From the NCBI GenBank assembly GCA_043228905.1, contig JBHGNT010000005.1:14694001-14758000 (forward strand): a DNA stretch of 64,000 nucleotides, read 5' to 3'. The position numbers were made by a program, and so were the translations under genes. Of the stretch, positions 34,201 to 61,436 are shown in pieces; position 1 is the first letter of the stretch, and each line of letters opens with the position of its first letter. This stretch comes from Azolla caroliniana (lineage: Eukaryota; Plantae; Polypodiophyta). The notes under the pieces were generated by a model, which did not search any database, was not told where the DNA came from, and was given only the letters and a program-made list of their open reading frames with translations.

Positions 34201-36899
34201 TCAATAGCTGCACATCGAATATACAAGACAAACACTACAAAGGCCTGAAATAGAGCTAGGATTAGATTATAGACACTATTTAAAATACTAAAATATTGAT
34301 TAGGCTCCAAGTAGCTTACCACTGCTGAGTATAGTCCAATTATCACGTTTTTTAATGTTATAGTTCCCACAAATGGCAGAAGGAACATATAGAACATTGA
34401 CAATGCAAAAAATATAGCAATTGCAACCACCTGTTAAATTTGACAATTAGGGAATATGTTAGGTGATATGGATTTGAAAGTTAAGAGTGCCTAACTGAAG
34501 CTAGCTGTGTTTGGGCATATGCTAATCAATTCATAAAATGAGAAACTCTAAAATTAACAAGAGTTATCATGTAATACATAGTAGTTGTGATTCCAGACTT
34601 GATGCAACAGCTATAAGCATGAATTTTTTTCCTAATAGAAAAAGTTAGTGAATGTTAGCAGGTTAAAAGGATTACAAGAGACAACATCTTATGTATGAGT
34701 AAAATATCTTCTATATTCGACTCAAGTGCCCAATATGCAATCTCGGGATTCATCACATAATCATCCCATTTCTTATGGAACACTTCCTTGCCACTTACGG
34801 CTTTGCAACTATTTGTGTCCTTTTCTAGTGCATTACAGATGCCTTAGAGAAAAACATTCATTCTGTGTTTTCGAAACATAAATAGTATTGTCCAGCTATG
34901 CACAATTGTGTTGTCATATTCCACAGTTATTATTGAGGAGAGGTATCAACATAAGGAAGTCGCCTGAGAGAGGACAGCATTGTTTGTTATCTTCAAGGTT
35001 GAGGTGCTAAGTGTTCCTAAGACTACAATCTTCAGTTTAGAGTAAACTAGAAAAGTTTGTTAGGTGTGCATCTCAGATTGAAAGCCTCATAGTCTCCTCT
35101 TGCCAAAATATACTACTGTTTCTATCATGTGCTGTGTATTATTATGTGTAATACCATGTCTCTATTTTTTTCTTGCCATGCTCATATGTTTCTGGTTTAG
35201 TGCAACAATACCAGATGCTTAGCAAAGTCCTTACTTTCCATTTGACTAGGCATTCTCAAGTAGTAGAGCAAGGAAAATAAAGCCCAAATTCTCCAACCTG
35301 CCATGTTTCTCAGAGTTATTATAATTTTCTACATCAGAACAAAGATGTTGAACTACCTAAATTGTGTATGGCTCAATAATCCAGAAAATGGAGACTCGAG
35401 TTTCAGGAAGGAGAGCAATAAGTAAAGACATTTTAAACCTACACCTATGTGAGGATAGTTATATGCCAAATTAATATAAAACAGAATGCTCCCTAGTTTT
35501 CTGGCGTGATCCTAGGGTATTATATTGATCTTGCCCCATAGGATAACTGTGGTTGTTCAAAAACTTTGTGAGATTTTGTAACATTTTTGGAATGTGCACA
35601 TGTGCCACAGTACAACTTCAAAGTGGATTGTAATGTTTCCAATCTACCTTCATGGATTTATTATCTTCCTACCATAGATTTATTGTCAATAATATTATTC
35701 CATCTCAACAGAATGCTTTCAGCAGACAATTACCCAACTTAGCACATGAAAACAGTACTTTTACTCTGGGTAAAGAACAACATGAAAATACTGTACAAAA
35801 GTATGTATCAAAGAGCTGACTGTTTCTCATATACCAATCAAGATCATTTGTAAAATACGATAGAACAAAACACTGCCAATGTCAGTAGCTATAACTAAAT
35901 CATTAGCCGATGATGGAGCAGAAACAAACAGTACAGTATCTTCCACATTACATGGAGAAAAAGAAAAATGTCGAAATTTCCTGTTCCGAGACAGCATTTT
36001 CTCAGAGCGTGATTGCTCAAAATAAATCACATCATGGACGATTTGCAATATGTTTGCTCAAATAAAACCACATCATGTATGATGTAATGTTAGGCAGTTT
36101 TTATTCTTAACCACTATATGTGTGTGGATGTGTATGTGTGTATAGATGCATGCATGTGTGTATGTATTTGAAGAAGTGAAGTTTCTTCTTCAAGATATAG
36201 CATTTGCAAACAAAAAAAAGCCTCATGGACGATTTAGATTTAGCCCCTTGGGCGGACTGAGTTCACGTATGTGCCAAAATGTAGAGATGACTCGTGGCTA
36301 GGTCTGTTTCAGAGATTTGATAGCTGTATTTATGATAATTGGAGGTATATGATCCACCTTCATAGATCAACCTATTCGAAGATCACATGTGTGCAGCAGG
36401 TGTGCACTATGTATGTATGCATGCATGCATGTATGTAACGATGTATGTACGCATGTATGTATGCATGCATGCAAGGATGTATATATAGATGCATGCATGA
36501 TTTAAGGATGCATGCGTGTATGCATGTATGTATGTGCATGTGTGTGTGCATGGATGGATATCTAGATGCATTCATGCATGTACGTATGTATGTATTTGAA
36601 GAAGTGAAGTTTCTTCCTCAAGACATAGCAGCATAACAAAAAACAGCCTCGTGGAGGATTTAGCCCTCGGGCAGTTCTTTTTTAATCTCTCGACTCATAG
36701 AAGGTTTCTTTCATTCATTTTATGGCGAAGAGAACATAAATGAGGGTTCGGGTTATTAATTAATTTCTATGGAAAGAAGGGTAAAACAAACTTCACAGAC
36801 ATAAAGGTTAGGGTTATGACTTCCTGTGGAAAGAAGGAAAGGTGAACCAACCTGATAAGCGTGAGCAGGATATTGCCAGCCATGGCGCCGCACCAACAT
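31244..36899 (-). CDS. DHHC protein S-acyltransferase (palmitoyltransferase), PAT19-22 type, 9 exons, about 704 aa
   Basis: Exons 36852-36899, 34320-34430, 33903-34244, 33671-33739, 33482-33553, 32852-32980, 32688-32768, 32500-32598, 31244-32407 (2115 nt, in frame). Motifs: [93 protein letters not shown]. Confidence 0.93.
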
Positions 36900-37324
36900 G
36901 GCGACGATGAAAGGGATATTAAATTAGGATTCTTCACATTTTCTCAGCCTTAGGCGTTGGTCACGCTTGTGGCGGCGACATCGCAGCAGCAGCCGAGATT
37001 CCTTCCTTTCCTTTTCCTGCTCGTGGCGTGGCGTGGCGTGGCGTGGGCACGGATTGGAGAGAGAGAGAAAGAGAGAGAGAGAGAGCGAGAGATATGTATA
37101 GGCAGGCATCGTAGTACGTACGTATGTATGTATGTATGTTATGTACATACAAATATACATACATGTAACATACATAGTCATCATCAACATGAACGAACGC
37201 CTCTCGGCTCTTTCCCCTTCCCAATCGAATGCCCACCTGATATAGATAGTAGTGCTTCTTTCCAAACATATAATAAAATGAGATAAGATAACCAACCAAA
37301 AGATTTGTTTTGAATCAACCACAA

Positions 37325-37528: not shown

Positions 37529-39622
37529 CACAAAGTATTTGGTCATATGTAGATCTTTATATCTTTATATTAAGGACTTCCACAATGTATTTTCCTATTG
37601 TGATGCATTTACACGAGAAATCGATGAGATTTACAAATATCAATAATTAGTGGAGCCCTTTATACTATAGATAGAAGGTAGCAAGGCCCAACAAAAAGTA
37701 CATAATTGCCGATTCTATTACAGTTTTCTCTATATTTGTTATTTTCATTCTTAAAGTGATAATAAATTTAGTTCATCCTTAACCAACAGTCACATTTCTT
37801 GATGCTTAAAATAATGCTTTCCATGCACACCATACACCATCACGTGAGATGAAAAGGGTGGATATTCATACATGCCAATCAATATGGTGGAAAATAAACT
37901 ATAATGCTTCATAAAATTCTCTCTTGTGGCAATCCCCTTTGTGAGACACGTAAATTGTTTGCACATGTTTAAACTCTTTATCAAAGTAGATTTTCATATT
38001 AACGGAGACATGGGAATTTGCAATGCATTCATCATCAAAGTTTATATTCACCTAGTCCTCAAGTACTCTTTATTTGGGTTGATTCGAGTGAAAACCATGT
38101 TAGCAACCTAGACTAATGAACTTCAAAGCAAGGGCTCTCAAGGTCTAATCTTTATCACACCTTCTGGAAAGCTAAAGAAAAACAAGATAGGAGGATACAA
38201 TTATTTAAGAGGAGGACAATGAGACCAACACCACCTAATTTGGACTTTCCTTCAATAGATAACCATCTACTTCATCACCATATCATCATTGGCATTCAAT
38301 TTGTCAATTGGATGTTGTCCAATGTTAAACTAAAATCACAAACACACATATCATGATCTTCCATTATGTCGAATACAATCCCTTAGCTTATTTAACCCCC
38401 ATTCAACCCTTCCAAGTGGTGGGGTTGAAGCACTTGTGCCCCTTCTCTCAGGTGAAAATCCCACAAGAATGTAGTTTTTTACTTGGGTTTCAGCTTTTGC
38501 TACTTCTCATTAGGAATGTTCACGTATGCAATAATGCCAAACACCTTCACATGTAATACGACCCTAGATTCTACCCAATTGTTCTCATGAAGAGTTATGT
38601 TATGAGCTTCGTCGATGGTGCATCAACTTGTTGGCCTAGGAGTATGTTCCGGAGTAGTATGAACGGGGACGAGTCAGAGCATAATTATTAGTTAAGTAAT
38701 ATTAGAGGAACGGACAAATCTGGATAGTTGTACCGATCCGGATCCGCACCGATTGATAGCCGGTAGCCGGTAAGGCACCGTTTTGTAAACTCTACCGGAC
38801 GCTTATAAAAGGGTTCGGATTGATGTATAAAGTTAATGGAAGTAATACAAGATTAGTGTGTTGATCTTAATGTTATTGTGTACCTGCCTGCTGTTCTGTG
38901 CTTTAATTATTAATCTTACTCGTGTTATAATTAATCAGAGACGTATTGAGTAATTCAGATTAGAATCGGATAAACACCGGATAACATCCATATCCTAACC
39001 ACCCCTTTGGAGACGTGTTCTGGAATGGACAGCCTGTGTTTGTGGCTAAGTCTAGCACACAACACGGAACCTACCGACAATGGTTGGAGTAGTTAGGCAA
39101 GCAGGTTGCCAATGTGGCTGACCGAATGGACGAACAACAGAGACGGGATCCAGAGCAGGCGGAATGGTTGTTGGCAGCAATCGCAGAGTTAGAAAAGGCC
39201 CAAAATCAGATTCGAAGGGTTAGAGGAGGAGTTGGCCAGTGTCAGAACCAAGGATAAAAGATAGAGTGATGGAAGAAGGATAGAGAAGAATGGATGTATA
39301 AGATAGAGAAAGAAAGAGAATGGATACAAGATATGAAATGAGAGCTAAAGACTGGTGTTGATTCGAATTGATTTGAGAATACATGTATGCGCTTATTTAT
39401 AGGTTCCTATAGAATAGCTTAGAGATTTCTAGAATGTTCTAGAATGTTCTAGACCTAGAATGCTCTAGGACATTCTAGAATAATCTAGAGTTTTTACAAT
39501 AATCAATGTAATACAAGAAGTAGCTTTTATTGTTTCATATAACAATAAGCTATCTTAATGGTTGAGGTTTTCAAGTATGAATTACAAGGTTCGAGGTTCA
39601 AGTCCGGGTGACGCCATAATGG

Positions 39623-42600
39623 TCACGTGTTCATGACACTATCCCTCCTTCGAGAACGCCGAGTGGAAGTCGGCGTTAACATTGTTGGGCCAGGCTTGTT
39701 TGGATAGTGACGATGGAAGTCGTTGACTAGAGCTTTAGCATTACAAACGTTATCGATGGGTTCCCAAGTGCGATCACTCGGAGGATAACCAAGCCAATCA
39801 ACTAGATAATAAAGCTTATTGCGCACAATCTTAGAATCGAGAATAGCAGCTACCTCGTATTCGGGGCCGTCCACAAGTTGTACAGAAGGCGGTGGTGGCA
39901 CGACACGATCAGGAATTAAAGAGGTGTGGCAAGGTTCCAAAAGAGAGCTATGAAAGACAGGGTGAAGCCGCATAGGTGCAGGAAGGTTAAGACGAAATGT
40001 TGCATCATTAATCTGCGCCGTGATGACAAAAGGACCTAAGCGTTGATAGTCAAGCTTAGCACACGGTCGGGTAGTCTTGATGTGACGACGAAGCAACCAT
40101 ACACGGTCACCAACCTTAAACAGAGACTTAAGACGATGTCGATCGGCATTGGTCTTATGGTGTGCTTGCGCTTTCTGAAGATGTGACGATAACTCGAACT
40201 GGATTTGTTGTAGTCGGTGGAGGTGATGCGCCGCACTAGGGTTTCGTGACACCTCGGGAAGATCCAGTATACACCATCGAGGGTGGTTGCCGGTGTAGGC
40301 AAACAAAGGTGTAACTTTGGTAGAAGAGTGGACTGTGTTGTTGTATGCAAACTCAGCAAGATGTAAAATTTTACTCCAATCATCTTGTTGATAACTAATG
40401 AAACATCGAAGATATTGCTCGAGCGTTTGATTTGTGCGCTCTGTTTGTCCGTCAGTTTGTGGATGATAAGCCGAAGAGAGTTTGCAAGAGATGTTGAGGC
40501 CTGCCCATAGGTGCTTCCAAAAGTGTGAGATAAATTGAGGACCTCGATCGCTAATAATATCATTCGGGAGACCATGATGGCGAAACACTTCACGCATAAT
40601 GAGATCTGCAGTTTCTTCACTATTGATGGTCTTTACACATGGTACAAAATGTGCCATCTTGGTGAACCGATCCACTACTATTAAAATAGTATCAAAGCCT
40701 TTGGAAGGTGGCAGATCCGTAATGAAATCCATAGAAATAGACTGCCATGGCTTGTTGGGAGGGGGTAATGGTTGTAGTAAGCCATAAGGGTGATGCCGGG
40801 GTATTTTGGCGCGACAGCAGGTGTCACAAGTGCGAACATAATCTTCGACAAATTTTTGCAAGTGAGGCCACCAAAACGAACGTTTCACCAACTCAATGGT
40901 CTTGGAAATACCAAAATGTCCAGCCATGGGGGCATCATGACAATGTTCCAACACTTGAAGTCGGGGTGATCCGTCGGGGACGTAAAGGAGATTCTTGTAG
41001 AAGAGTAAACCATCTTGCCACTTGAAGTCCTGATAATGTTGAGATGACCCTGGCAATGTGGAGCAAGATGGACGACTTGAACCACAGTGGGCTAAGACAT
41101 CCTTAGCAAAATCATCCGAATGAAGTTGTTGCCGAATAGTGTCAAGAAGGGTAGAATCAAGTGATGTGGCATAAATTGTTGTTACCTGTAGCTTTGATGG
41201 CCCGAGGAGAGTTTGCTTTTGATTGTCAAAGGCCGGATCTCCAGGTCGAAGTGCTAGATACGAACGCCGAGACAGAGCATCTGCTTTCCCTTGTTTTCCG
41301 GGGCGAAAAATGATCTTGAAATCGAAACGCGTTAGAAATTGGGCCCACCGAGCTTGTCGTCTATTTAATACTTGAGCTGTTTGAAAATATGTGAGATTTT
41401 TGTGATCACTATAAATGATAATCTGATGAGGTGATCCTTCTAGAAAATGACGCCATTGCTCGAATGAGTCGACCACAGCTAGTAACTCCTTGTCATGCAC
41501 CTCATAGTTTATCTCCGAAACAGTAAACTTTCTCGAGTGAAACGCGACTGGATGTATCTGCCCGTCCTCGCCTGGTTGCGATAGGATACTCCCCAATGCA
41601 AAGTCTGATGCATCCGCCTCAATAGTAAATGGCTTTTCAGGATCAATATGTGCTAGGATGGGTGCTGATGTGAATGCCTCTTTAAGTTGCGTAAAAGCCT
41701 TGTCCACTTCGATACTCCAAAAAAATGCTTGATTTTTCTTGGTGAGTTGAGTAAGGGGCAACACAATGCTTGAATAATTATGTATGAATTTGCGATAGAA
41801 GTTCGCAAATCCGAGGAAACACTGGACATCCCGAATTGAGCATGGGGGTTTCCATTCCAATATTGTTTGGACTTTTGCCGGGTCCATGAAAACACCCTGG
41901 GATGAAATGGTGTATCCCAAAAATTTGACTTGTTTGCAATCAAAACTACATTTCTCAAGTTTGGCGTAAAGACCATACTTCCTTAGGCGTTCAAGTACTT
42001 GCCGCACATGTATATCATGCTCCCCCTGTGTTTTAGAGTAAATCAATAGATCATCTAGGTAGATGATTAGAAAAATATACAAGAAATCCCGGAAGATGTC
42101 ATTTGCCATATGTTGGAATACAGCAGGTGCATTTGTGAGCCCGAAAGGCATGACTGTATACTCGAAATGACCATACCGAGTACGAAATTCTGTTTTCCAC
42201 TCATCTCCCGGCCGAATTCGAACAAGATTATATGCACCCCTTAGATCAATTTTGGTAAAATGCTTTGCCCCACCAATGCGTTCTAAGAGATTGGAGATTA
42301 AAGGTAAAGCATACCTATTCCTTATGGTGACTTTATTTAAGCCTCGATAGTCCACGACCAAACGAAGGGAGCCGTCCTTTTTCTTCACAAAAAAGATAGG
42401 AGCACCAGCTGGAGACTTTGAATGTCGAATAAACCCATGTGCAAGATTTTCCTCGATGTATTCTCGAAGAACCTCAAGCTCAGTGGGTGATAAATTGTAA
42501 ATCGGACCCCACGGAGGCTCTTTTCCTGGTTGGAGATCAATAGGACAGTCGTACGACCGATGCTTTGGAAGAACACTAGCTTTGACTTTGTCGAAAACAT

Positions 42601-43249
42601 CATCATAGTCTTGATATTTTTTGGGAATTTGGATGTCTGAATTCCCTTGAGTGACACTAGAAGGTGTCACTGATACTGCAAATAAGAAAAGGTCCTCCTT
42701 GCCTCCCACTTGGTGCAATTGTTGCAATGTGATGGCTGAAATTTGATGAGAAGGATATGGTGCATCGGTAGAACTATATACTTTGGGAGGATAATCCCGA
42801 GTTCGATCCTTGACAATGATATTTTCTGCTAAAGGGCACCTAATTTCTCGCTTCCTCCAATCGATTCTAGGGTTATGTAGCTCGAACCATGGCAAACCGA
42901 GGACAATTGGATGCTCAGGACTACGGATTATGTTAAAGGAAACTACACATCCTAAATCACCCAAGAGTATGTGTATTGGCTCAGACTCTTCAAATATCTT
43001 CCCGGAAGCTATGGGGCGTCCATCAATCACTACTACGGAAACTGGACAAGGAAGTGTATGCAAGGATATTTGGTGTTTTTGGGCAAAATCTCTATCCATG
43101 AAACAAGAATTGGCTCCAGTATCTAAGAGGGCTTGGACTTGAAGTTGACAACTGGGTGTCCTAACTTGTACTAGGGCTGAGAAGACTCTACTAACATGCT
43201 TGGAAGAAATGGAACCCACACTAGGTTGTACATATCTAGGGTTGTCCAA
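39623..43249 (-). CDS. pol: Pol polyprotein of H (protease, RT, RNase H, integrase, chromodomain)
   Basis: Uninterrupted 1208-aa ORF: ALLDTGA, YLDDLLIYS, EADASDFALG, HDAPMAGH...CDTC, SMDFITDLP, ISDRGPQF, YHPQTDGQTER, chromodomain EYEVAAILDS...YLVDWLGY...TWEP. The frame is open upstream to about 43311. Confidence 0.95.
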   Translation of the reverse strand: MDNPRYVQPSVGSISSKHVSRVFSALVQVRTPSCQLQVQALLDTGANSCFMDRDFAQKHQISLHTLPCPVSVVVIDGRPIASGKIFEESEPIHILLGDLGCVVSFNIIRSPEHPIVLGLPWFELHNPRIDWRKREIRCPLAENIIVKDRTRDYPPKVYSSTDAPYPSHQISAITLQQLHQVGGKEDLFLFAVSVTPSSVTQGNSDIQIPKKYQDYDDVFDKVKASVLPKHRSYDCPIDLQPGKEPPWGPIYNLSPTELEVLREYIEENLAHGFIRHSKSPAGAPIFFVKKKDGSLRLVVDYRGLNKVTIRNRYALPLISNLLERIGGAKHFTKIDLRGAYNLVRIRPGDEWKTEFRTRYGHFEYTVMPFGLTNAPAVFQHMANDIFRDFLYIFLIIYLDDLLIYSKTQGEHDIHVRQVLERLRKYGLYAKLEKCSFDCKQVKFLGYTISSQGVFMDPAKVQTILEWKPPCSIRDVQCFLGFANFYRKFIHNYSSIVLPLTQLTKKNQAFFWSIEVDKAFTQLKEAFTSAPILAHIDPEKPFTIEADASDFALGSILSQPGEDGQIHPVAFHSRKFTVSEINYEVHDKELLAVVDSFEQWRHFLEGSPHQIIIYSDHKNLTYFQTAQVLNRRQARWAQFLTRFDFKIIFRPGKQGKADALSRRSYLALRPGDPAFDNQKQTLLGPSKLQVTTIYATSLDSTLLDTIRQQLHSDDFAKDVLAHCGSSRPSCSTLPGSSQHYQDFKWQDGLLFYKNLLYVPDGSPRLQVLEHCHDAPMAGHFGISKTIELVKRSFWWPHLQKFVEDYVRTCDTCCRAKIPRHHPYGLLQPLPPPNKPWQSISMDFITDLPPSKGFDTILIVVDRFTKMAHFVPCVKTINSEETADLIMREVFRHHGLPNDIISDRGPQFISHFWKHLWAGLNISCKLSSAYHPQTDGQTERTNQTLEQYLRCFISYQQDDWSKILHLAEFAYNNTVHSSTKVTPLFAYTGNHPRWCILDLPEVSRNPSAAHHLHRLQQIQFELSSHLQKAQAHHKTNADRHRLKSLFKVGDRVWLLRRHIKTTRPCAKLDYQRLGPFVITAQINDATFRLNLPAPMRLHPVFHSSLLEPCHTSLIPDRVVPPPPSVQLVDGPEYEVAAILDSKIVRNKLYYLVDWLGYPPSDRTWEPIDNVCNAKALVNDFHRHYPNKPGPTMLTPTSTRRSRRRDSVMNT

Positions 43250-43275
43250 CCAAATGGCTCCTATTTTGGCCGGAC

Positions 43276-44439
43276 TTATTCGTTTGACTCCTCTTCTAAT
43301 TGGCTTAGGACTTCAAATTTATTGGACAAGGGTGGATTATTCATAATATTAGATTCACTAACTACTTCTAAAATGTTGGACTCATTTTTATTGTCATAGT
43401 GAATTTGATTTACCTGACGTCTCGGCCTACGGGAGCAATGAATGACTATATGTCCTGGACCTCCACAATATAAGGACAGATGGTTTGCTCGACGACGTTG
43501 CTTCTCTTCGTCTGACAACGGTCCTCGTCATTGAGTCATATCGATCTCCATGGGTGTAGGACTATCCATTGGAATTGGACTACGTGTTTGCCTTGGAGTT
43601 GGAGCAGGGCTATACATTTGCCTTGGGGATGATTGCGATGTTACTAATGCATAAGTTGGTGTGAATCTTGATCTTGTTATTTGTTGTTGTCGCTCACATC
43701 GACACTCAAAAAGGCGATTATCACACCGTATTGCTCGACTAATAGCTTCTATAAGTGACCTTGGATCCTCGGGGAAGGTAAGAAGTAAGTCTTTGACATC
43801 ACTACGAAGGCCTGAACGGAATTGCTCCATTAGGGCTTGTTCATCCCAAGGAATATCGCTTGTGATGAGACGGAAATTGGCAGCATATGTTGAAGCTGGT
43901 TGATCACCTTGACGAAGTGTACGAATCTTATTGATAGCTGTTCTCGCCCCATCAGTATCTCCGAAACAAGCCTTAAATTCCTTGATAAATTCCTCGAAAT
44001 TATTCAGTAGAGGAGAATTGGTCTCTAGCAATGGAGCAAACCACGACAACGCTATGCCAGTCAATAAAGTGCCCACTAGCCCGACTTGTGATGCATCTGT
44101 TGGATAACGTGCGGGATGCATTTGAATCACCAACCGTACTTGATTAAAAAAACCTCGGAAATGCGCCCTCGACCCATCAAATTTAGCTGGGAGGCTAATT
44201 TTGGGCTCCTTGATAAGTCCCTGACCTTCAACCCTTTGTTGTTGTAACACGATGATTGTCGACTCTAACTGTTGCACTCGTCGCGTGAACTCCTCTTGTT
44301 GTTGTTGCTTCTCTATAGTAACCTTTTGTAGATCCCCAAGTAGACGTTGATTCTCTACTTCAAGAGATGCGAACTTGGATTTAAGGTTCTCCATTTCTGC
44401 AACAAGGGTGAGATATTCTTCCGAGTTAATGGCAGCCAT
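43276..44439 (-). CDS. gag: Gag of H with one in-frame premature stop (43528-43530)
   Basis: Coiled-coil N-terminus, EPKISLPAKFDGSR, LRQGDQPASTYAANF, PMEID, degenerate zinc knuckle SLYCGGPGHIVIHC. ORFs 43528..44646 and 43276..43518 are in the same frame. Confidence 0.88.
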
Positions 44440-44487
44440 GGTTTCAAGATGGTTACAAAGGAGGATAAGAGAGAGAGAGAGAGAGAG

Positions 44488-44499
44488 AATTCGAATCAA
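44488..44499 (-). promoter_or_regulatory. Self-priming primer-binding site of H (TTGATTCGAATT)
   Basis: Lies 2 nt inside the 5' LTR and does not start with TGG. It is the exact reverse complement of LTR positions 44620-44631, about 32 nt downstream of the TATA box. Confidence 0.8.
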
Positions 44500-44688
44500 A
44501 CTGTCAGAACCAAGGATAAAAGATAGAGTGATGGAAGAAGGATAGAGAAGAATGGATGTATAAGATAGAGAAAGAAAGAGAATGGATACAAGATATGAAA
44601 TGAGAGCTAAAGACTGGTGTTGATTCGAATTGATTTGAGAATACATGTATGCGCTTATTTATAGGTTCCTATAGAATAGCTTAGAGAT

Positions 44689-44711
44689 TTCTAGAATGTT
44701 CTAGAATGTTC
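44689..44711. promoter_or_regulatory. Perfect heat-shock element in the U3 of H (copy at 39427-39449)
   Basis: TTCtaGAAtgTTCtaGAAtgTTC: five alternating nGAAn units about 25 bp upstream of TATAAATAA (44655-44663, minus strand). Confidence 0.8.
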
Positions 44712-47278
44712 TAGACCTAGAATGCTCTAGGACATTCTAGAATAATCTAGAGTTTTTACAATAATCAATGTAATACAAGAAGTAGCTTTTATTGTTTCAT
44801 ATAACAATAAGCTATCTTAATGGTTGAGGTTTTCAAGTATGAATTACAAGGTTCGAGGTTCAAGTCCGGGTGACGCCATAATGGTCATGTGTTCATGACA
44901 GCCAGGGCCAAGGAATTAGCGGCCATTATGGCAAACATGGGCCACAACACCAGCTCAGAAAGAAATCTGGCAGAACTAGAAGGAACAAAAGAAAAGGATC
45001 TGACAAAGGAGACAGAACAAGTGCCTAGAGCAACACTAATAAATGAGCGTGAGTGGGAGAAGGAAATACAAGCGCTCAAGGAAGAATTGGTCTCACAAGC
45101 GGCTTTACGAGAAAGAGAAAGAGACTTGAGAAAGACAACCGAGGAGGAACAACAGGGAATCGAGGAAAGTCTCTAGAAGACACAGAGCAACACGGACCGA
45201 CTGAAGGAGAAAAAAGAAAGTTTGCTGCAAGAAAAAGACAAGCTCTGGCGAATGATAGAGACAGAGATAGAGTGATTAAAGGAAGAAATCTAGCAACAAA
45301 AGAACTGGGATGATTGGTTGCGATCACAAACCAACTGGTGCCTAAAGCAGAAAATAGAGGACTTCGAAAAGTTGTACCGGGATCATAAGCAGTTGGAGAC
45401 GGACCACAAGAAGTTGGGGTCGGACTATGACTGGCTGTTGAGACAACGACAAAGGTGTTGGAGGAAGCGGCAAAGGAGCGCATGGAGCTCGTGTCGCAAC
45501 ACTATCAAGAGTTAGAATGGGCAAAGATGGTGTTGGATAGGGTGCAAACAACCTACCAAGCCAAGTTGATGGAATATGAAATACACGCAACAACAACGAT
45601 GAATCTCATCAAACAACTAAAGAACGAAAAGAAGGCCACGGAAAACAAAGTAAAAATGGGCATTCAGAGAATCCGAATGATTGTCGGACCATGGAGGGAC
45701 TAGACGAAAACAAGGATAGATGATTGTTTGACGACGGTATGGAATAAATGGTCGAAACAAGCGGCGGAACTCCAACTGCGCCAAGTGGATGCGAGAAACC
45801 AGAAGAAGGCCAATGAGAATTTTTATAAGATGGATGAGGAAAGCATTGTCACCATCCAAGAGGGATTGTCAGTCAAATTTTTTGCCCTGGCCGAAACTCA
45901 AATAGAGGCTATCCGGAAGCTCATCGACAAGAAGATGATCAACTCGACGTGCAACTACAATTTGAGGGCTATGAGTGGTAACAACGGAGGAAGGAAGCTG
46001 AACAACGAGTAGAACAAATCAATATCATTGATGAGGAGCAATCGACGGAGCCAAAGACCTCTACACCACAACAGTCGGGAATGGAGACAGATATACTGAT
46101 GGAAACAGAGCTGGACCCATAATGAGAGGAGGAGACAGAGAGGGCTGAACCGAAGCAACAACAATGCCCTCAGCAGCCAGAACAACAACAACCACCGAAG
46201 CAACAACAACAGATGATGGAAGAAGAACCACTCGAACCCTTGGACCAGAGTATTTTGGACATACTCGATGAACATTAAAGCAACTAACCCGTGGGTTCGA
46301 CGTGCAAGGCACTATCCCACGGGTGTGCCATGTGTTCGGCTAGGAGTATGTTCCGGAGTAGTATGAACGGGGACGAGTCGGAGCATAATTATTAGTATAA
46401 TTAATAGTCAAGTAATATTAGAAGAAGGACGGATCCACACTGATTGATAGCCGGTAGCCGGTAGCCGGTAAGGCACTGTTTTTGTAAACTCTACCGAACA
46501 CCTATAAAAGGGTCCGTATTGATGTTTAAAGTTAACGGAAGTAATACAAGATTAGTGACATGTTGATCTTAATGCTATTGTTTACCTGTCGTTCTGTGCT
46601 TTAATTATTAATCTTACGTGTGTTATAATTAATCGGAGATGTATTGAGTAATTCGGATCGGAATCGGATAAACACCGGATAACATCCATATCCTAACCAC
46701 CCCTTTGGAGAAGTGTTCCGGAATAGACACCTTGTGTTTGTGGCTAAGTCTTGCCCAAGATAAACACGACTCATTAGGTAGACAGTTGTGTATATTACTT
46801 CTGCCCAATATGACTTTGACATGTTCTTTTACTATAACATAGTTTGTGTGACCACGAATAATGAGATTCTTTCATTCACCAACTCTATTTTGTTGGGATG
46901 TGTGGTGACAAGTGAATTCCCGAAGGCATTGGCTAAAAACACCTTTGAGAAGTATCTTTTGCCATCATTTAAATGTAATCATTGAACCTTTTGACTTGTC
47001 TCTTTCTCCATTTGGAATATTCAATCTTTAGAAGTGAGTGAACACTTCACTCTTCTTTTGCATTAGGCATATCCATGCATGTTGGGCAAAATAGTCAATG
47101 AAGGTAACAAACTACCTACATCCATTGTATATTTCATTTTAAGTTGATCCCCATACATCTAATGGATGTCACCTAACAACCCTTTGATCACATTCTTTTT
47201 GTTAGGGAATGGATGCTTATATTGTTTGTTGACAAGCATTGCATAGTCAGTCGATTTCAAACTTACCAACAATCTAGT

Positions 47279-47945: not shown

Positions 47946-49164
47946 TGTCACAGATGAACAATTGGAAGATAAAGAGATGGGGAAGTTGATGACAATGAGT
48001 AAGAATATCTATTCCATGACTGGCGTTGATTTCCTTGATGTTAACAAGGGAGATCAACCCTTTTTATAATATCAAGCCAAGTCTTCATACTATAATATCA
48101 AGCATACTAATTCTTGCATGCAAAGTCTTACATACTGAGTCTTATATACCACTCTTTATACAAAGGTTTAAAAACTAAAGTTTGTCTGGGAGAAATATAT
48201 ATATATACAAGAACCTAAGGCTAAAATTCGAGTCGATGTTCATGACATTATCCTCCCCTTAAACGCCAACTTCAAGAAGGTGCAGGTTTGTGAGGATATC
48301 GGAGATGAAAATCATGAACCACTTCCGAGGCATTGAGTAAATTTCTAGCGGGCTCCCATGTGGCCTTAGAGATGGGATATCCTTTCCACAAGACCAAATA
48401 CTAGAGCTTCCGTCGGCTCTTGTGCAAGTCTAGAATGGTCTCAACTTCATACTCATCCCCAGGGGGGGTGGCTCGATGCTTCTTCCTGGAATTGAGGATG
48501 GATGATAGAGCTCAAGAAGTGATGCATGGAAGACATTGTGAATTCGGTGGTGTAATGGAAGAGCAAGACGGAAAGCCACAAGGTTGACTTTGTCAATGAT
48601 GTGGAACAGACCCAACTTTTTGTAATCGAGTTTGTTGCATGGGTGAGTTGTCGGAATATGCCGACGTAATAGCCCGAACATGTCACCAACTTTAAAACTA
48701 GGTGCAGCCCGCCAATGTCGATCAACCTTCTCTTTGTGTCATTCTTGAGCAATGGAGAGTTCTAGGGATAGATCATGATGCACTTCTTTCATCAGACGAG
48801 CTCGGTCTTCAGTAGATGGATTCACAGAACCAACAGGGATAGCTATGCTAAAGCGTGGGTGGAGCCCATAATTTACGAAGAAGGGTGTTACGGTAGTTGA
48901 TGTGTTGAGAGTATTGTTGTAGGCGAACTCGGCCATTGGAAGAAATTTGATCCAATCGTCTTGTTGATAACTTATCATACATCAGAGATATTGCTCTAGG
49001 ATCTGATTCACTTGTTCCGTTTGGACATTTGTCTCAAGATGGAAGGCTGTTGAAAATTTTGTGGAAGTTCCAAGAGTCTAGAAGAGGCGTTTCCAGAAAT
49101 GAGACATAAATTGGGGACCGGAATAAAAAATAATGTCATCCAGTAAACCGTGAAGGCACACGAT
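47946..49164 (-). mobile_element. 3' end of a second, degenerate chromovirus (J): LTR, PPT, chromodomain and integrase
   Basis: LTR 47946-48247 ends gttcatgaca, as in H; PPT aaggggaggataa; peptides QQDDWIKFLPMAEFAYNN, KLDYKKLG, IHNVFHASLLE and LHGL.DDII..GPQF. Confidence 0.85.
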
Positions 49165-49343
49165 TGTTGTCTGTCGGAATAGTAACCGACGGACAGAAGT
49201 GAAGAAGTATTATAATATAGTAAAAGCGTAAGAAACGTATGTAACGGTTCACGTGGGAGGTGTGAACGGCTAAAAGACCTTGTCCTGTGTATATAAAGGG
49301 AAGTGTAAACGTAAGTGTTTGCGGAAGCGTAAAACAGAGAACA

Positions 49344-49382
<39 letters not shown>

Positions 49383-51713
49383 AGAACACAATTTCAAAAT
49401 TATCTCAAGACTGTGTATACACACTATGCTAAGTAGCACTATTTATACAAGTCCTCTTGGGACTGACAGAAGTACCATGTACTTCAATGCTCACACGAGC
49501 ATCTGACACTTACTACGAGACTATAGCTACCTAGTAGTCTATCCTATATTAGGCTTCCGATTGGACTTCCGGTTACGGATTGCACCCGACCTCCACTGCT
49601 TGCCGGTTCGGTTGCTCACCGGTATACCGATCCGTTTCGCCCGATCCGTCTCGCTTACCGGCTCTGGCTTATTCAACCGATCCAGCTCCGGTTGAGATTG
49701 CCGCTCAACACTCCCCCTCAAGCTCAACCTGAGGTGGGGTCGTAGTGTCGACCTCTGTGGCAGTCGACTCTTCCAACCGACTTCTCCTGGCGTCACTCCG
49801 CCTTGCTCACGCTCCTCGTCCGGTCCGGTCCCATTTGCCGTGACCCCTTTAGTTTTGCGCGCCTCGACCCTCTCGGTCGACATGTCTGCTCAATAGGCCC
49901 ATCTCAACACTCACGTTGTTGTGACTCCGGCGCTTGCCGATCCGTCGGTTCTCCCACGATGGAATCAACTTCTGCTGTGTCCGTGTCCCCTTGGCCTTCA
50001 GTCGATCCGACTCATCCGGATCCATATGTTGATCCGAGTCAGCTGTCTCCGACTCGTTCCAGCTCTTGTCCGAATTGGTACACTCCGATTCGACTTCCGA
50101 CTTCAGGCCTCTCACCACATCGGACCACTTCCGAGTCTTGGCCTTCTCCCTGCTTCCCTCGGCTTCTTCAGCCGGTGAACCGAAATCGAATTCTTAATTC
50201 GACTCCGCATCATTGTCAGTATCGTCGTGATGAACTCCGCACAACATGCACTTCTCTTCCTGAGTGCACAACTCTTCTTCACAGCCGCTTGCTCCGACCT
50301 GTTCGGATGTATCGACTTCCTTCGTCGACTCGGCTTCCTTCATCTTCTTGTCTCCTCTTCTTCTGGCTCTCCTCTTACCGACGGGTTCAACAGTTTTTTG
50401 GCCTTTGCCCGTTTCGGTAGAGACTTTGCCCTTGCTTCTCCCCCTCAAGTGCGGCACGTCGAGATGTTGAATACCAAGCATGTCGGTAAAGTGTTGCAAC
50501 TTGTCCGATCCGAGCGGCTTGGTGAAGATGTCGGCAACTTGCCGATCCGTATGAACATACCGTAGGTCAACTTCACTGCTCAGGACCCGCTCACGCACGA
50601 AGTGGTAGTGCACCTCGATGTGCTTTGTGCGAGCATGGAACACAGGGTTCCTAGCGAGCTGCAGGCTGCTCATGTTATCGCAGTAAATCGGGATCGGGGT
50701 CGGTGCCTCGATCTGCAAGTCTCGCAGAAGTCGCCGAAGCTAGATGGCTTCACAAGTGGCAACGGTAGCGGCCCGGTACTCAGCCTCAGTGCTTGACAAA
50801 GCCACTGTGGGCTGCTTCTTGCTGCTCCACGCAACGGCCGCGCTACCTATGGAGAACATGTATTCGGAAGTGGAGCGGCGATCAGACGCATCGCCGGCCC
50901 AGTCCGCATCTGTGTAACCGACAAGCTCTTCGGGTATACCTCGCCAGTATAGCAGTCCCCGGTCCTTAGTGCCGCTGAAATACCATTGACGGGAACCTAA
51001 CGTTCCTTATGTCCAACGCTCGGCCACAACCGAGATTCTTTACTTACACAGAAAACAGGAAACGGAAAAACACGCGACACAAAAGGAGAGAAGAGGTACA
51101 CAGGAGGTTTACGTGGAAAACCCCAAGCTAGGGGAAAAAACCACGGCAACCCACAGGCTGCAAACTGTCACTATGTATGAATGTACAAAACAGTGAGTTC
51201 ACTGAGGCACCGACCTCGTGCTCACAAATCTTCGCCATAGGCGGCGGTTACAACAGAGGCAACGACCTCGTCTCTCTCTCTCCCTCTCTGTACAGTTACG
51301 CACTCTCTCCTTTTTCTTGCACCAACAAGAAAAATGACAACAACTACAACAGTTACTAAAAGTTTGCCCTAAGTCATATTTATACTAATATGACTTTTCG
51401 GCTATTTACAAATGTAGCCTCGATGGGCTCTCAGAAACATATTTACGAATATGTCTCTTCCTCTGGTTCGTACCGGGGCCTGCACCATCGGGTTCTCCGT
51501 AGCCGGGTACTCCTCATCCGGTTCATACCGGGCCTGCACCATCCGGCTCTCCGTAGCCGGGTACTCCTCATTCGGTCTTCACCGGGTCTGTATCATCCGG
51601 CTCTCCGTAGCCGGGTTCTCCTCATACCGTTTTGGCCTCGGCCGAGTTTGTTCGCCGGCACTGTTCTTCTTCCTTCCCATCCGGAGGGACCTGTCTCCCA
51701 ACAAACTCCCCCT

Positions 51714-54700
51714 TCACTCCGGCATGGGGTGTCTTACCAGTCCGATCCTCTTCCGGCATGCATCCAGCTTGTCGGGTGTCAGCACTTTGGTCAACATATT
51801 TGACCCGCTCTCGGCCGTGTGGATCTTCGTTAGTGCGAACTCCTGGTCATCTACTCTTTCTCGGATCCAGTGATACCTTCGCTGGATATGCTTCGTCGGG
51901 GAATGGTAGGCCGCATTCTTAGCAAGGTGGATGGCACTTTGACTGTCACAGTAGAGTCGGTATTCCTCTTGCCGGATGCCGAGCTCTCCGATGAAGTCCT
52001 TCATCCATAATATTTCCTTGCCGGCTTCCACAGCCGCCATGTACTCCGCCTCCGTGGTTAACAATGCAACCGTCTTCTGCAGCCTCGACTGCCATGAAAC
52101 AGCTCCCCCTGCATATGTCATTACATACCCGGATGTAGACCGGCTGGTATCCACATCAGCCGACATGTCCGAATCGGTGAAACCGTCCAGTTGAGGTTTT
52201 CCGGAGCCGAATCGGAGACACATATTTGAAGTGCCCTTCAAATACCGGAGTATCCATTTGACTGCGTTCCAGTGCTCCTTGCCGGGATTACTCATGAACC
52301 GGCTCACCACTCCGACTGCGTATCCTATATCCGGTCGGGTACACACCATAGCGTACATCAAGCTCCCGACGGCAGAGGCATATGGAATCTTCATCATATC
52401 CGCCTTCTCTGCTTTCGTCTTCGGGCTTTGCTTGCCGGATAGTCTGCAGTTTGCCGGAAGTGTCGATCCGGCCGGTTTCGCTTCTGACATATTGAACCGG
52501 TGAAGCACCTTTGTCACATACTTCTCCTGTGACAGCCATAGTTGCTTCTTTAACCGGTCCTGAATGATGTACATCCCCAACATCTGTCTTGCCGGACCCA
52601 AGTCTTTCATTGAGAAGGTCCGGTTGAGAGCCTTCTTCAGCATCCGTATTTTGACTTAGTCTCGTCCGATGATCAACATGTCATCCACGTACAGGAGGAG
52701 TATCAGGAAGTCCCCTCCTTCAAACTTCTTCACAAACACGCAGTGATCGGCCTGCGTCTTGTGGTACCCTTGATCGGTCATGAAGGAGTCGAACTTCCGG
52801 TACCATTGCTGTGGAGCTTGATTCAGTCCGTACAGACTCTTCTTCAACCGGCATACTAGGTGCTCCTTCCCTTTCTCCACAAATCCTTTCGGTTGCTGCA
52901 TGTAGATCTCCTCTTCGAGGTCGCCGTGAAGGAATGCCGTCTTCACGTCCAGCTGCTCTACCTCGAGGTCCATGCTTGCTGCTATACTCAGCACCGTCCG
53001 GATGGAGGTCATCTTTACTACCGGGGCAAATATCTCATCGAAGTCCACGCCCTTCTTCTGCTGGAACCCCTTGACCACGATCCTGGCTTTGTATCTCGGG
53101 GGGTTGCCGGCATCTCCCGGTTTCAACTTGTACACCCACTTGTTTCGGAGTGCCCGCTTTCCTTTCGGCAACTCCACCAATTCATACGTATGGTTCTCAT
53201 GCAGGGAATCCATCTCATCCTGCATGTCACTTAACCATTTTCTGCTGTGGGTGTCTTCCTTTGCTTCTTCGAAGCTTTCCGGCTCCCCCTCATCGGTTAA
53301 CAAAACATGCTCTGCATCCGGAAATCTCCGGGGCGCCCTTCTCTCTCTGAGAGGATATCTCCGTCTTCGGGCTTCGGTAACCGACTCCTCCATTTGCTCT
53401 TCATCCGAATCCGATTCGGGGTCTGGGCCGGTTCCGGTCTCAGCTTCCTCTACTTCTTCTTCTACCGGTTCGGTATCCTCACCGTAACCGGCTGGTTCCT
53501 CGAGTGCTAACCGGTCTCTTGCCGGTTGGGTCTGCTCATCGTAGAGTCTATCCTTACCGGTCGACTCGGAGTTCATTATCTTCTTCTCCGACTCCCAGTC
53601 GGCGAGCGTCTTGTCCTCCATGAAGATAATATCTCGACTCCGGAATACCTTCTTGTCAACCGGGTCCCACACTCGGTAGCTGAACTCATCGTCACCGTAA
53701 CCGAGGAATATGCATGGCCGGGTCTTTGGATCTAATTTTCCTCTCCAGTCCTTTGCAACATGCACGTACGCGAGACACCCGAACACCCTCAGATGCTGGT
53801 AGGACACTTCCTTACCGGTCCATACTCTCTGTGGCGTGTCTCCGTCCAACGGTACTGAGGGTGATCTGTTTATCACATATGTCGCCGTCGACAGTGCCTC
53901 AGCCCAAAACTTCTTGAGTAGTTTTACATGCGCTAGCGTACTCCGGACCCTCTCCATTATGGTCCGGTTCATCCTCTCGGCCAGTCCGTTTAGTTTCGGC
54001 GTCTTCGGCACGGTAAATTCGAGCCAGATTCCCTTCGAGCGGCAGTACTCCTCGAACTGCCCCCGGTATTCTCCTCCGTTGTCTGCTCGAACCGCCTTCA
54101 GCTTCCGGCCGGTTTCTCTTTCCACTCTCACGTGGAGCTCTTTGAAGACGGATAGCACCTGATCCTTCGTCTTCAGTGGTGTGGCCCACAGCTTCCCGCT
54201 GTGGTCATCTATGAACGTCACGAAGTACTGCGCTCCGGCATGTGACTTCGTGTCTACTTGACACACATCCGTATGCACCAACTCTAGTGGTGCATTACGT
54301 CTCATCGGTGGCCTTGGTCGGAAGGAGGTCCGGTTCTGCTTACCGGCCAGACAATTAGTGCACTTCTCTAAGTGCACGTTCTTCATTGGAATGAGGTTGT
54401 CGTCTGCAAGCCTCTTCATCCCCTTCTCGCTCATATGACACAGCCTCTTGTGCCACAGCTCACCGGCAGTGTCGGATGCCACGTTCACTTCTTCCGGACA
54501 TAACCGGGCATTCATCAAGTACAGTGTGTTTACCTTCTGAGCCCGAGCCACAGTCAGGCTCCCTTTGCTGAACTTCATGACACCGTTCCGGATGCTACCT
54601 GTGTAGCCTTCATCATCTAGCCGATCGGCTGATATCAAGTTCAGATGAACTTCCGGAACGTGTTGGACATCCTTCAGCTGCAACTTGCATCCGGTTGGTG

Positions 54701-55745
54701 TTGACAGCCACACGTCTCCTATGCCGATAATCCGGCATGTACCTTCATTCCCCATCCGGACACAGCCGTGGTCACCAGCTGAGTAGCATGAGAAGCATTT
54801 CCGGTCCGGGGTAAGGTGGAACGATGCTCCGGAGTCTACCACCCAGGTCATCTCGTCGCCGGCAAGGTTTATCTCATACTCCTCGGTGATGAGCATCAAC
54901 TCTTCTTCACTTGCCGCGATTGCCGTCGTTCCCTTCCGGTCTTTACCGTTCCGGTCCGGGGTTTGCTTCGAATCGGTACCGTCGGTTTCCTTGTCTTTAC
55001 GGAAATGCCGACAGTTCTTTTGGAAGTGTCCCGGCTTGCCGCAATAGAAGCAAGTAGGCCTCCCCCTTGACTTTGACCGTGTCCCCGACTTCTCCTGGTT
55101 TTGGGGACTATGGTTTCTATGTCTTCCGCGTTCTGATTCGGTAAGGAGCGCTTTGGAGTCGGAGCTCGTATCTTTATCCTTCCGACGCGCCTCCTCATCT
55201 AGCAAGCTCGACTTTACTCTTCCTAGGGATAACCGTTTTCCTTCCGGCCCGGCGTTGCCCAAAGTGACAACCAACGTCTCCCAGCTATCCGGGAGGGAAC
55301 CGAGTAGGAGTAACGCTAATACCTCATCGGCAAGGGGTACTTCCAATGACGTTGCCTGGTGTATCAGCCCCTGGAAGGCATTCATATGCTCCGCCATGCT
55401 GGAGCCATCTTGGTACCGGAGTCTTACTAGCTTCCGGAATACCGAAACCTGATTAACAACATTTTTGTTTTGAAACATTATGCTGATCTTCTCCCAGAGC
55501 TCATGAGCCTTGCTCTCTTCATTGAAGTTGTTGTACAGGCTCATGTCGATGAAGCACCGTATGTATGCCGTTGTCTTCATGTGCATCACCTCCCATATCG
55601 CGGCATCGATTTTGTTCGGTCTCTTGTCCCCGAACTGAACCGGTAGCCAGAGGTCTTTAACAACGAGCATGTCCCTCATCTTCGACTTCCACACTGAATA
55701 GTTGGAGCCGGTGAGCTTGAACATGCCGCCAAACGATTCGTCCAT
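51714..55745 (-). CDS. Gag-Pol polyprotein of C with a single in-frame TAA at 52656-52658
   Basis: CFYCGKPGHFQKNC, WVVDSGASFH, WHKRLCH, DNGGEY, LDVKTAFLHG, LLYVDDML, YCDSQSAIHLA. ORFs 52656..55805 and 51714..52643 are in the same frame. Confidence 0.92.
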
Positions 55746-56252
55746 TTTTTGTGTCGATTTCGCTCTGATACCACTTGACGGGAACCTAACGTTCCTTATG
55801 TCCAATGCTCGGCCGCAACCGAGATTCTTTACTTACACAGAAAACAGGAAACGGAAAAACACGCGACACAAAAGGAGAGAAGAGGTACACAGGAGGTTTA
55901 CGTGGAAAACCCCAAGCTAGGGGGAAAAACCACGGTAGCCCACAGGTTGCAAACTGTCACTATGTATGAATGTACAAAACAGTGAGTTCACTGAGGCACC
56001 GACCTCGTGCTCACAAATCTTCGCCATAGGCGACGGTTACAACAGAGGCAACGACCTCGTCTCTCTCTCTCCCTCTCTGTACAGTTACGCACTCTCTCCT
56101 TTTTCTTGCACCAACAAGAAAAATGACAACAACTACAACAGTTACTAAAAGTTTGCCCTAAGTCATATTTATACTAATATGACTTTTCGGCTATTTACAA
56201 ATGTAGCCTCGATGGGCTCTCAGAAACATATTTACGAATATGTCTCTTCCTC

Positions 56253-56470
56253 CGGTTCGTACCGGGGCCTGCACCATCGGGTTCTCCGTAGCCGGGTACT
56301 CCTCATCCGGTTCATACTGGGCCTGCACCATCCGGCTCTCCGTAGCCGGGTACTCCTCATCCGGTTCATACCGGGCCTGCACCATCCGGCTCTCCGTAGC
56401 CGGGTACTCCTCATCCGGTCTTCACCGGGTCTGTATCATCCGGCTCTCTGTAGCCGGGTTGTCCTCATAC
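56253..56470. repeat. 54-bp tandem repeat in the LTRs of C (4 units here, 3 units at about 51463-51630)
   Basis: Unit cggttcataccgggcctgcaccatccggctctccgtagccgggtactcctcatc. Confidence 0.85.
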
Positions 56471-59400: not shown

Positions 59401-60456
59401 TCCTGATCCGTTTGCATAGTGCGAGTTTTGCCGGCCATCCCTACCGGTCTTGCCGGATCCAGATTTGTCCGAATCGGCACGCTTTCTCCAGCACTCGCTT
59501 TCCCTGTGGCCTTTTTTGCCACAGTACCAACATTCCGTAGCGGATTTGTCTGGCCGGCCTCTGGCACCGCCTTGACTCCCCCTGCTTGTGGAAATCCTGG
59601 AACTGCTGTCGGCACGCTCATAGTGCCTCCGTTCTTGCTCTTGCCGGCCGCCTCCATTGCGTGCCGACCCACCTCTTCCACCACGCCCACGGAGCCGATC
59701 CGTTCCCGTGTACAACATTCGGCTATCCGGGGATGCACCGGTAGATGCACCGGCGTGGTTCTCCTCTACAAGGATCATCGACTGTAAGTCGAAGAATGAG
59801 GGGGTATTCTCCCTTGTACACACCGCAGTCCGGAACGCTCCGAACTTGGACGCCAGGCCTCCGAGACATACCTGCACCATCTCGTCTTCCTCTACGGTAA
59901 CATTGATAGAGGCGAGCGAGTCGCAGATCTCCTTTATCCGGCCCGTGTAGTTTGCCATGGACATGTTCTTCTGTCGAATATTGTTCAACTCCTGTCTGAG
60001 TTGTAGCTTCAGGGCAGTGGTGCTTGCGGTGAAAACCTTTTTCAGGTTCCCCCAAGCATCCTTCGGTGTCTTGGCGTCACGGATGTGGTTGAGCAGCTGA
60101 TCGCCGACACTGGACGCGAAGCAGTACATCACCCTGCTTGCCGCCTGTTCCCATACTGGGAAGTCCTTGTGTGTGCTGAGTCGGGTGCCGCATCATTTGC
60201 TACTTCGCATAACTCCATTACCCGTGTCCAAGTAGGTACTGGTGCATCTTGTAAGACCAGGATGCGTAGTTACTCCTGTCGAGCTTCTCCACCGGGAGCG
60301 ATGTAGCCATGCCTCTATCCATGTCTTCTACTGTGTCTGTTTTCGCCCTGTTAGGGTTTTCTTCTCAAGAGTAAATGTCTGTAGCAGAGGTTCTCAACCC
60401 TCGCGCTCTGATACCATGTAAACGTAAGTGTTTGCGGAAGCGTAAAACAGAGAACA

Positions 60457-60515
<59 letters not shown>

Positions 60516-61436
60516 GAGAGAGAGCAGAACACAATTTCAAAATTATCTCAAGACTGTGTATACACACTATGCTAAGTAGCACTATTTATACAAGTCCTCT
60601 TGGGACTGACAGAAGTACCATGTACTTCAATGCTCACACGAGCATCTGACACTTACTACGAGACTATAGCTACCTAGTAGTCTATCCTATACTAGGCTTT
60701 CGATTGGACTTCCGGTTACGAATTGCACCCAGCCTCCACTGCTTGCCGGTTCGGTTGCTCACCGTCATACCGATCCGTTTCGCCCGATCCGTCTCGCTTA
60801 CTGGCTCCGGCTTATTCAGCCGATCCGGCTCCGATTGAGCTTGCCGCTCAACAGGAAGAAATCCTCTGTAAGATGTAGCGTGTAATTTTGGTGCATAGAG
60901 CATTATTCTAATAGAGTATTATCTTCTCTGATTTCTGTGCATATCTTTGGTTGATCTACTGTGTTCTTTGATTCTCTATGGCGTATTGTAATCGTAAGGG
61001 CGTAGGTGTAACTGCGGTTACTAGTGCATTGTCTAAGGAGTTCGGTTGTAGCCGTCTCCCTTATACGCTACTAGGATACGGGGAAGTATCCCATTATGTA
61101 TTACCGTACGACGGTACCATTCTTTGCAACGCAGTCACCTTGAGGTCTAGGTCAAAGGACTGACTGTAGACAGTGTTCCTAATTGGTAACACGTTTGGCA
61201 GGTTTGGTGATCTGTGTCTTCTCACAGACGAACAACGACGAATGGATGTTTAGCCGTAGACGTCCTAGAGAACCAACACGACAAGACCGACCAATCACAA
61301 GGTCCATCACACGCTAGGTAGAGGAACATGCAAGGCAAAAACCTCGCCTCAGTGACACTCAGTGATATCTGTCGGGACCACAAAGTCGATTTCCCGCTCA
61401 CCAAATACCCCGGTGACAAGCAAGAAGTTCGCTCAC

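Follow-up and report, generated by a model that had tools for sequence, protein, structure and literature searches.

A perfect heat-shock element in a likely exchangeable LTR promoter slot of a Tcn1-like chromovirus from the fern Azolla caroliniana

Structure and genomic context of the element

The window, i.e., the whole 64-kb stretch of Azolla caroliniana DNA that was analyzed, carries on its reverse strand a young LTR retrotransposon composed of the following parts:

39240..44900, minus strand: whole Tcn1-like chromovirus, 5661 bp, with TG...CA ends
39235-39239 and 44901-44905: 5-bp target duplication GCCAG
44502..44900, minus strand: 5' LTR, 399 bp, with 1 mismatch to the 3' LTR
39240..39638, minus strand: 3' LTR, with the same heat-shock element (HSE), TATA box and tRNA-type boxes as the 5' LTR
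43528..44439, minus strand: gag, which begins at its ATG and is cut short by an in-frame stop at 43528-43530
39623..43312, minus strand: pol, uninterrupted over 1229 aa and encoding protease, RT, RNase H, integrase, SH3 and chromodomain
39639..39651, minus strand: polypurine tract

The divergence between the LTRs is 1/399, or 0.25% (95% interval 0.006–1.4%), and the insertion is nested inside an older LTR-like pair (38629-39059 and 46333-46757, 84% alike). The domain order of Pol (PR-RT-RH-INT-chromo) is that of Gypsy elements, with a C-terminal chromodomain (PF00385) at 1152-1202 whose aromatic cage residues Y, W and Y were read by eye in EYEV...VDWLGY. This protein domain content and order upheld the initial, sequence-only reading of the element as a Gypsy chromovirus, as well as its separation from ONSEN/COPIA78, which has the Copia order PR-INT-RT-RH. 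The best named relatives of Pol were fungal, fish, frog and algal proteins (39–53% identity).

Relatives of the element were collected by a metagenome scan, which yielded 75 loci on collapsed contigs, some of them possibly chimeric and with the host not stated. The TATA box and a conserved R motif served to anchor U3 at 28 of these loci, and the other 47 were left out. The stop in gag precedes the zinc knuckle, and the zinc-knuckle region past the stop also lacks its first cysteine; at the 20 related loci examined, the stop position is a sense codon in all 15 where the motif was located. Owing to this in-frame stop the copy in the window is unlikely to move by itself and is probably a passenger without mobility of its own, which, encoding neither a full Gag nor Gag-Pol, would need an intact sibling for mobilization.

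Several other features lie around the element:

36850-36900 and 31244-34433, minus strand: host gene in the orientation of the element, whose start is about 2.5 kb downstream of the promoter in the 3' LTR
47948-49224, minus strand: remnant of an older, second Tcn1-like element (integrase-chromodomain, 50% identity)
12227-13657: internal tandem duplications, two copies of 382 bp and three of 278 bp, within the part of a Copia element (LTRs at 11133-11594 and 17073-17542) that encodes RT and RNase H
49304-60853: Copia element with a second Copia nested inside, whose LTRs start near 50980 and 55768 with adjoining 54-bp tandem repeats
867-1847, minus strand: methionine S-methyltransferase exon (aminotransferase-like C-terminal part)

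The N-terminus of the host gene seems similar to that of plant DHHC palmitoyltransferases, and a Pfam search of two exons returned no family. As the gene lies downstream of the 3' LTR in the same orientation, heat-driven read-out into it is possible. The older Tcn1-like remnant has a 300-bp LTR with the same TGTCATGAAC end, and carries neither an HSE nor an A/B-box cassette. For the methionine S-methyltransferase exon, the best named matches came from Adiantum (56%) and Ceratopteris (54%), with seed plants at 42% or less, which points to a fern as the host.

Promoter architecture of the LTR

The LTR is modular: from the outer edge inward, an A/B-box cassette is followed by an AT-rich spacer, then by the enhancer slot and the TATA box, and 32 nt past the TATA box lies a self-primer. 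The slot and the TATA box are occupied as follows:

44689..44711, minus strand: perfect 5-unit HSE of the 4P class (motif match)
44712..44751, minus strand: degenerate distal part of the TCTAGA array (sequence and comparison of copies)
44656..44663, minus strand: TATA box, TATAAATA, whose distance to the conserved R motif is 39-41 nt in all anchored LTRs
39394-39401, minus strand: TATA box of the 3' LTR

On the plus strand the perfect array reads TTC-ta-GAA-tg-TTC-ta-GAA-tg-TTC at 44689-44711 in the 5' LTR and at 39427-39449 in the 3' LTR, flanked on both sides by one imperfect unit, while more TCTAGA units reach 44751 and 39489, respectively. The 4P class is defined by at least four adjacent alternating nGAAn units and is described as the strongest class, with two HSFA2 trimers bound (PMC5059998, passages cited); here there are five perfect units. 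They lie 26-48 bp upstream of the TATA box (26-88 bp for the full repeat zone), i.e., at about -58 to -80 relative to the predicted start, which is the promoter-proximal position of strong 4P HSEs. The sequence-only reading had placed a perfect 5-unit HSE in both LTRs, about 25-80 bp upstream of the TATA box, and this was confirmed, as was its proposal that the array was built from a 10-bp microrepeat: TRF found a 10-bp period, and the indels among relatives are multiples of 10 bp.

Chance matches to the motif were rare. The 64-kb window contains six three-unit HSE matches, all within the two LTRs, against 1.0 expected, and none of 100 shuffles gave as many; when the U3 of the window copy was shuffled by mononucleotides (n = 200,000), five units were never obtained and four units 10 times. 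Elsewhere in the window, nine more stretches of LTR-like repeats were examined, and none exceeds two HSE units. There are 0 CG and 0 CHG sites in the last 130 bp of the window-copy U3, and 3 CG and 1 CHG in the entire U3, which is thus not wholly CG/CHG-free, in contrast to the ONSEN promoter. The segment 44690-44751 forms a long, if imperfect, inverted repeat, with weak matches to miRNA precursors (29.9 bits, cut-off 90); a miRNA precursor was rejected, as these matches are far under the cut-off and due to the palindrome. In a sequencing run guessed to be RNA, one contig with unlike flanks spans the LTR, but the run is unlabelled for treatment and uninformative on expression.

Downstream of the TATA box, two further parts were recognized:

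44620..44631, minus strand: self-primer of 12 nt, with which the RNA is predicted to begin (start at about 44631)
44488..44499, minus strand: primer-binding site, complementary to the self-primer, with which it co-varies across families

The 12 bases that follow the 5' LTR are complementary to the 12 that begin 32 nt past the TATA box, a pairing also present in the predicted fold, and 10 of 11 elements have 12/12 such pairs, with compensatory sequence changes and a start 32-33 nt past TATA. No complementarity to a tRNA 3' end was found at the primer-binding site, and no tRNA primer site in the element, which is therefore likely self-priming. As an RNA with Tf1-type priming uses its own 5' end as the primer, the constant position of the self-primer supports both the predicted start near 44631 and the TATA assignment.

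Self-priming and a group I chromodomain are given as the marks of the Tcn1 clade (PMC6317226, PMC3350952, passages cited). The sequence combines the Gypsy order, a C-terminal group I chromodomain with its aromatic cage and predicted self-priming with no primer-binding site for a tRNA, and "Tcn1-like", a label drawn from features and not from a tree, is the limit of the placement; the fern clades Galahad and Mordred are also possible. An earlier survey by PCR did not detect Tcn1 in ferns (PMC2864245), and the cited part of PMC13469084 holds nothing further on ferns.

Toward the outer edge, the LTR carries boxes of tRNA type on the opposite strand:

44803..44880 (approximate bounds), plus strand: tRNA-derived cassette, outward-facing and antisense to the element
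44818-44825, 44849-44853 and 44857-44867, plus strand: A-box core, variable-loop motif and B box of the 5' LTR cassette
39541-39618, plus strand: cassette of the 3' LTR (A box about 39556-39563, B box 39595-39605)

The A-box core and B box stand at exact tRNA-numbering spacing, and the variable-loop motif is nearly invariant. The cassette was found in 16 of 24 LTRs (16/20 in the main clade, 0/4 among distant LTRs) with a pattern widened after the first one had missed 45-nt spacings (11/24), both patterns having been composed after viewing the alignment; shuffles gave 0.12 expected matches for the first pattern, which differs slightly from the final one. The tRNA stems are lost (anticodon stem 42% paired, acceptor stem 46%). 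ARAGORN found no tRNA in 22 related loci at default settings and none in 26 segments at a 90% threshold, and Rfam gave no tRNA match in three stretches, the window LTR included; together with the unpaired stems, this ruled out a functional tRNA gene. The cassette may serve as a TFIIIC chromatin barrier, as the source of an antisense Pol III transcript, for pairing between genomic RNA and host tRNA, or as a landing pad. At one related locus (L012, about 4445-4550) the 3' LTR gives way to unrelated sequence some 100 bp from the outer edge, close to where a degenerate tRNA-type cassette has its upstream side; this one case bears on the landing-pad idea.

Distribution of the heat-shock element and contents of the slot

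Four to six perfect HSE units were present within 150 bp of the TATA box at 13 of the 28 anchored loci and 0–2 units at the other 15, none having exactly three. Many of the 13 carriers are near-duplicates and reduce to about seven families, which cover 72–91% Pol identity. The distant ones (72–76% Pol identity) hold the array in the same slot, at a U3 identity of 48–65%. A scan of viral contigs returned one distant locus, without an HSE. Most sister families without an HSE have RY repeats (CATGCA) and G/E-box-like motifs in this slot instead, as follows:

L020-L022, L024, L025, L028, L030-L033 and L050: RY and G/E-box motifs in the last 150 bp of U3

The absence of an HSE is weak evidence at L028, for which just 51 nt of U3 are available. 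Two perfect ACGTGGC boxes are found in L025, and a tandem repeat of about 26 bp fills the slot in L019. RY and G/E-box motifs mark ABA/desiccation promoters. With the HSE kept in distant families and these predicted drought-hormone-type motifs in sister families, the lineage likely swaps stress switches.

The sequence-only reading had the HSE gained by the window's own family. This did not hold, as the HSE is shared with families at 72–76% Pol identity, in two Pol clades; the gain predates the window's family, which inherited it. A Pol tree was built from 20 rows, namely the loci of known U3 without near-duplicates, with L040 and L043 as outgroup. In it the HSE carriers form two clades, which requires at least two changes, and a constraint uniting them was borderline rejected (p-AU 0.0497), so that a single and a double origin are both possible. 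A gain within the lineage is likely, since the outgroups lack the HSE.

U3 similarity is uncoupled from Pol similarity. L021 and L022 are 80% identical in Pol and 82% in U3, and L019 and L022 95% and 60%; the corresponding values are 72% and 65% for the window copy and L016, and 78% and 51% for L021 and L016. The L021 arrangement was seen in three separate assemblies (L021, L024, L032), which argues against one mis-assembly. LTR exchange between families is the simplest reading of this uncoupling.

Function of the array

The HSE is real and probably functional. We regard it as quite probable that the perfect 5-unit HSE in the U3 enhancer slot is a site for host HSF trimers which would switch on the Pol II transcript under heat or related protein stress. 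In this mechanism, slippage of the palindromic 10-mer would keep adding units, selection would keep at least one perfect run of at least four units near the TATA box, and two HSF trimers would bind and activate transcription from the TATA promoter, an extrapolation from ONSEN and from the elements of the flatworm. In addition, as the 130 bp ahead of the TATA box contain neither CG nor CHG, maintenance methylation may be weakened. In this region of U3, the seven HSE families have 0–1 CG; of seven families without an HSE, five have 4–10 and the remaining two have 1 and 0. The difference is partly automatic, as HSE arrays are AT-rich by nature; three CHG sites lie near the TATA box in L008, L009 and L010, unlike in ONSEN.

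The same site could be bound by an HSF and yet answer to another cue. Some plant HSFs function in seed maturation or as repressors, and the signal could be developmental, desiccation or oxidative, or a class-B HSF could repress the element, the HSE and the RY/G-box motifs then being two routes to one expression window (e.g., spore or gametophyte drying). The RY and G/E-box motifs of sister families in the very same slot are consistent with this, as is the moss Gypsy element RLG2, described as responsive to heat and ABA alike (PMC7466625); against it, perfect 4P arrays beside a TATA box are the class of strong heat induction in Brassicaceae Copia elements (PMC5059998) and in flatworm Ty3 elements (PMC12801592), and we consider a cue other than heat or protein stress unlikely.

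If the array were a neutral palindromic microsatellite, grown by slippage of the reverse transcriptase and matching the HSE by accident, a clear 10-bp periodicity, copy-number variation and many decayed units (e.g., in L016 and L034) would be expected, and all of these were observed. Such an origin is nevertheless hard to reconcile with an array kept in one slot across the divergences in Pol and U3 given above, with a perfect run of at least four units in 13/13 carriers, or with L010, which is in phase though its inner spacers differ. The length changes are of whole 10-bp units and therefore keep the GAA/TTC phase. One such unit more than in the window copy, found in L003 and in one contig each of X1, X2 and X3, creates a second perfect 4-unit HSE. 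The offset of the perfect run differs from family to family, which indicates that the site turns over while its class is kept.

Cores also vary less than spacers. A first spacer test (35% vs. 16%) was inflated by the array ends, and a test restricted to internal junctions was used in its place. Across the seven dereplicated families, 17/192 core positions and 15/64 spacer positions were changed (2.6 times more in spacers, p = 0.004), with deamination-type changes at 3/64 core positions vs. 9/32 in spacers (p = 0.002), although these p-values overstate certainty, since tandem copying and common descent make the units dependent on one another; duplication may also have spread the TA spacers. Altogether, the comparative pattern favours selection for HSF binding over drift of a neutral microsatellite, which we judge very improbable.

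Least credible of all is a role of the palindromes at the RNA level, where a hairpin formed by the genomic RNA in its 3' U3 would serve packaging, termination or small-RNA production, or the binding of a factor other than an HSF. The long inverted repeat and its weak precursor matches point that way, but HSEs are palindromic in any case, L007, L008 and L009 have a single 4-unit site without a two-armed layout, and 15 loci replicate without the array.

Comparison with known systems

The capture of HSEs by LTR elements, including HSE-dependent Gypsy LTRs of a flatworm, is already known (PMC12801592). The contrast implied in the sequence-only reading, with heat-activated elements being Copia, was too strong, as HSE-dependent Ty3/Gypsy LTRs have been validated in that flatworm, where mutation of the HSE abolished the heat response (PMC12801592), and heat-induced plant Gypsy families have been reported (PMC7466625, PMC9780303). 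As a point against the heat activation predicted here, two of the six HSE-bearing flatworm families, with one HSE each, were not induced (PMC12801592).

ONSEN/COPIA78, TERESTRA and COPIA37 of Brassicaceae resemble the window element in having a 4P-class HSE in U3 and an AT-rich, CG/CHG-poor promoter (PMC3907296, PMC5059998); activation via HSFA2 was shown for ONSEN (PMC3907296), and HSF hijacking was proposed for Brassicaceae Copia, in which recurrent HSE gain is known (PMC5059998). They are, however, Copia elements of seed plants, whereas the window element is a fern Gypsy chromovirus, likely self-priming, for which heat induction is a prediction. The HSE-bearing Ty3/Gypsy families of Macrostomum lignano (Mag/CsRN1/Gmr1) have canonical HSEs upstream of the start, gained repeatedly, but they are animal elements of other Gypsy clades with validated function, and the cited passages mention neither an RY/G-box module nor a tRNA cassette (PMC12801592). 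Among plants, RLG2 of Physcomitrium patens and the Ty3/Gypsy elements of Cryptomeria are heat-induced, as is predicted here; they are likened to the window element by description, not clade, and the cited passages identify no cis-element (PMC7466625, PMC9780303).

The Tcn1 chromoviruses of mosses and Selaginella and the Tf1/Sushi group have in common with the window element a group I chromodomain with aromatic cage and self-priming, but the Tcn1 reports concern mosses and club-mosses, and their cited passages mention no HSE or tRNA cassette (PMC6317226, PMC2864245, PMC3350952). Named relatives in fungi and fish are likewise common to the window element and this group, as far as the cited accounts go. 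Cryptococcus is the genus that gave the Tcn1 clade its name, and its elements TCN3 and TCN12 are of Gypsy type. Both are LTR elements with putative HSEs, mobilized at 37 °C; they are fungal, HSF binding is not demonstrated in the cited passages, and the comparison with the window element is by description only (PMC12810828).

Helenus/TRIMp3 has tRNA-derived A and B boxes in the LTR without a functional tRNA, but Helenus is non-autonomous and non-coding, and the Pol III promoter was proposed to serve its own RNA (PMC10886601). The window element, by contrast, is 5.7 kb long, with gag and pol, a Pol II TATA box, and boxes facing away from the element transcript.

Implications

In the literature consulted, neither a defined HSE in a plant chromovirus nor one in a seed-free vascular plant was found, though supplementary LTR motif tables could hold prior notice, and an LTR of three parts (tRNA cassette, stress slot and TATA/self-primer) was not found described. 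The swappable slot and the tRNA cassette are more surprising than the HSE itself. One tentative reading, which we think possible but would not yet favour, is a plug-in LTR promoter, shared by protein-coding chromoviruses of ferns, in which a fixed, outward tRNA-derived TFIIIC cassette would shield or open the promoter in heterochromatin and the TATA box and self-primer would likewise be fixed; between them, a stress cassette (HSE or ABA/desiccation-type RY + G-box) would be traded by LTR recombination, so that families divide the host stress responses among them.

With an HSE that is old and phased, and sister promoters that differ naturally in one slot, two questions become testable, i.e., whether the stress motifs of transposon promoters are there through selection on the element, and whether families partition stress niches through U3 swaps. 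The tRNA-type cassette, described as a feature of TRIMs that are non-autonomous, is here extended to coding elements. Finally, with its 3' LTR pointing at a host gene, the element may confer heat responsiveness on its neighbour.
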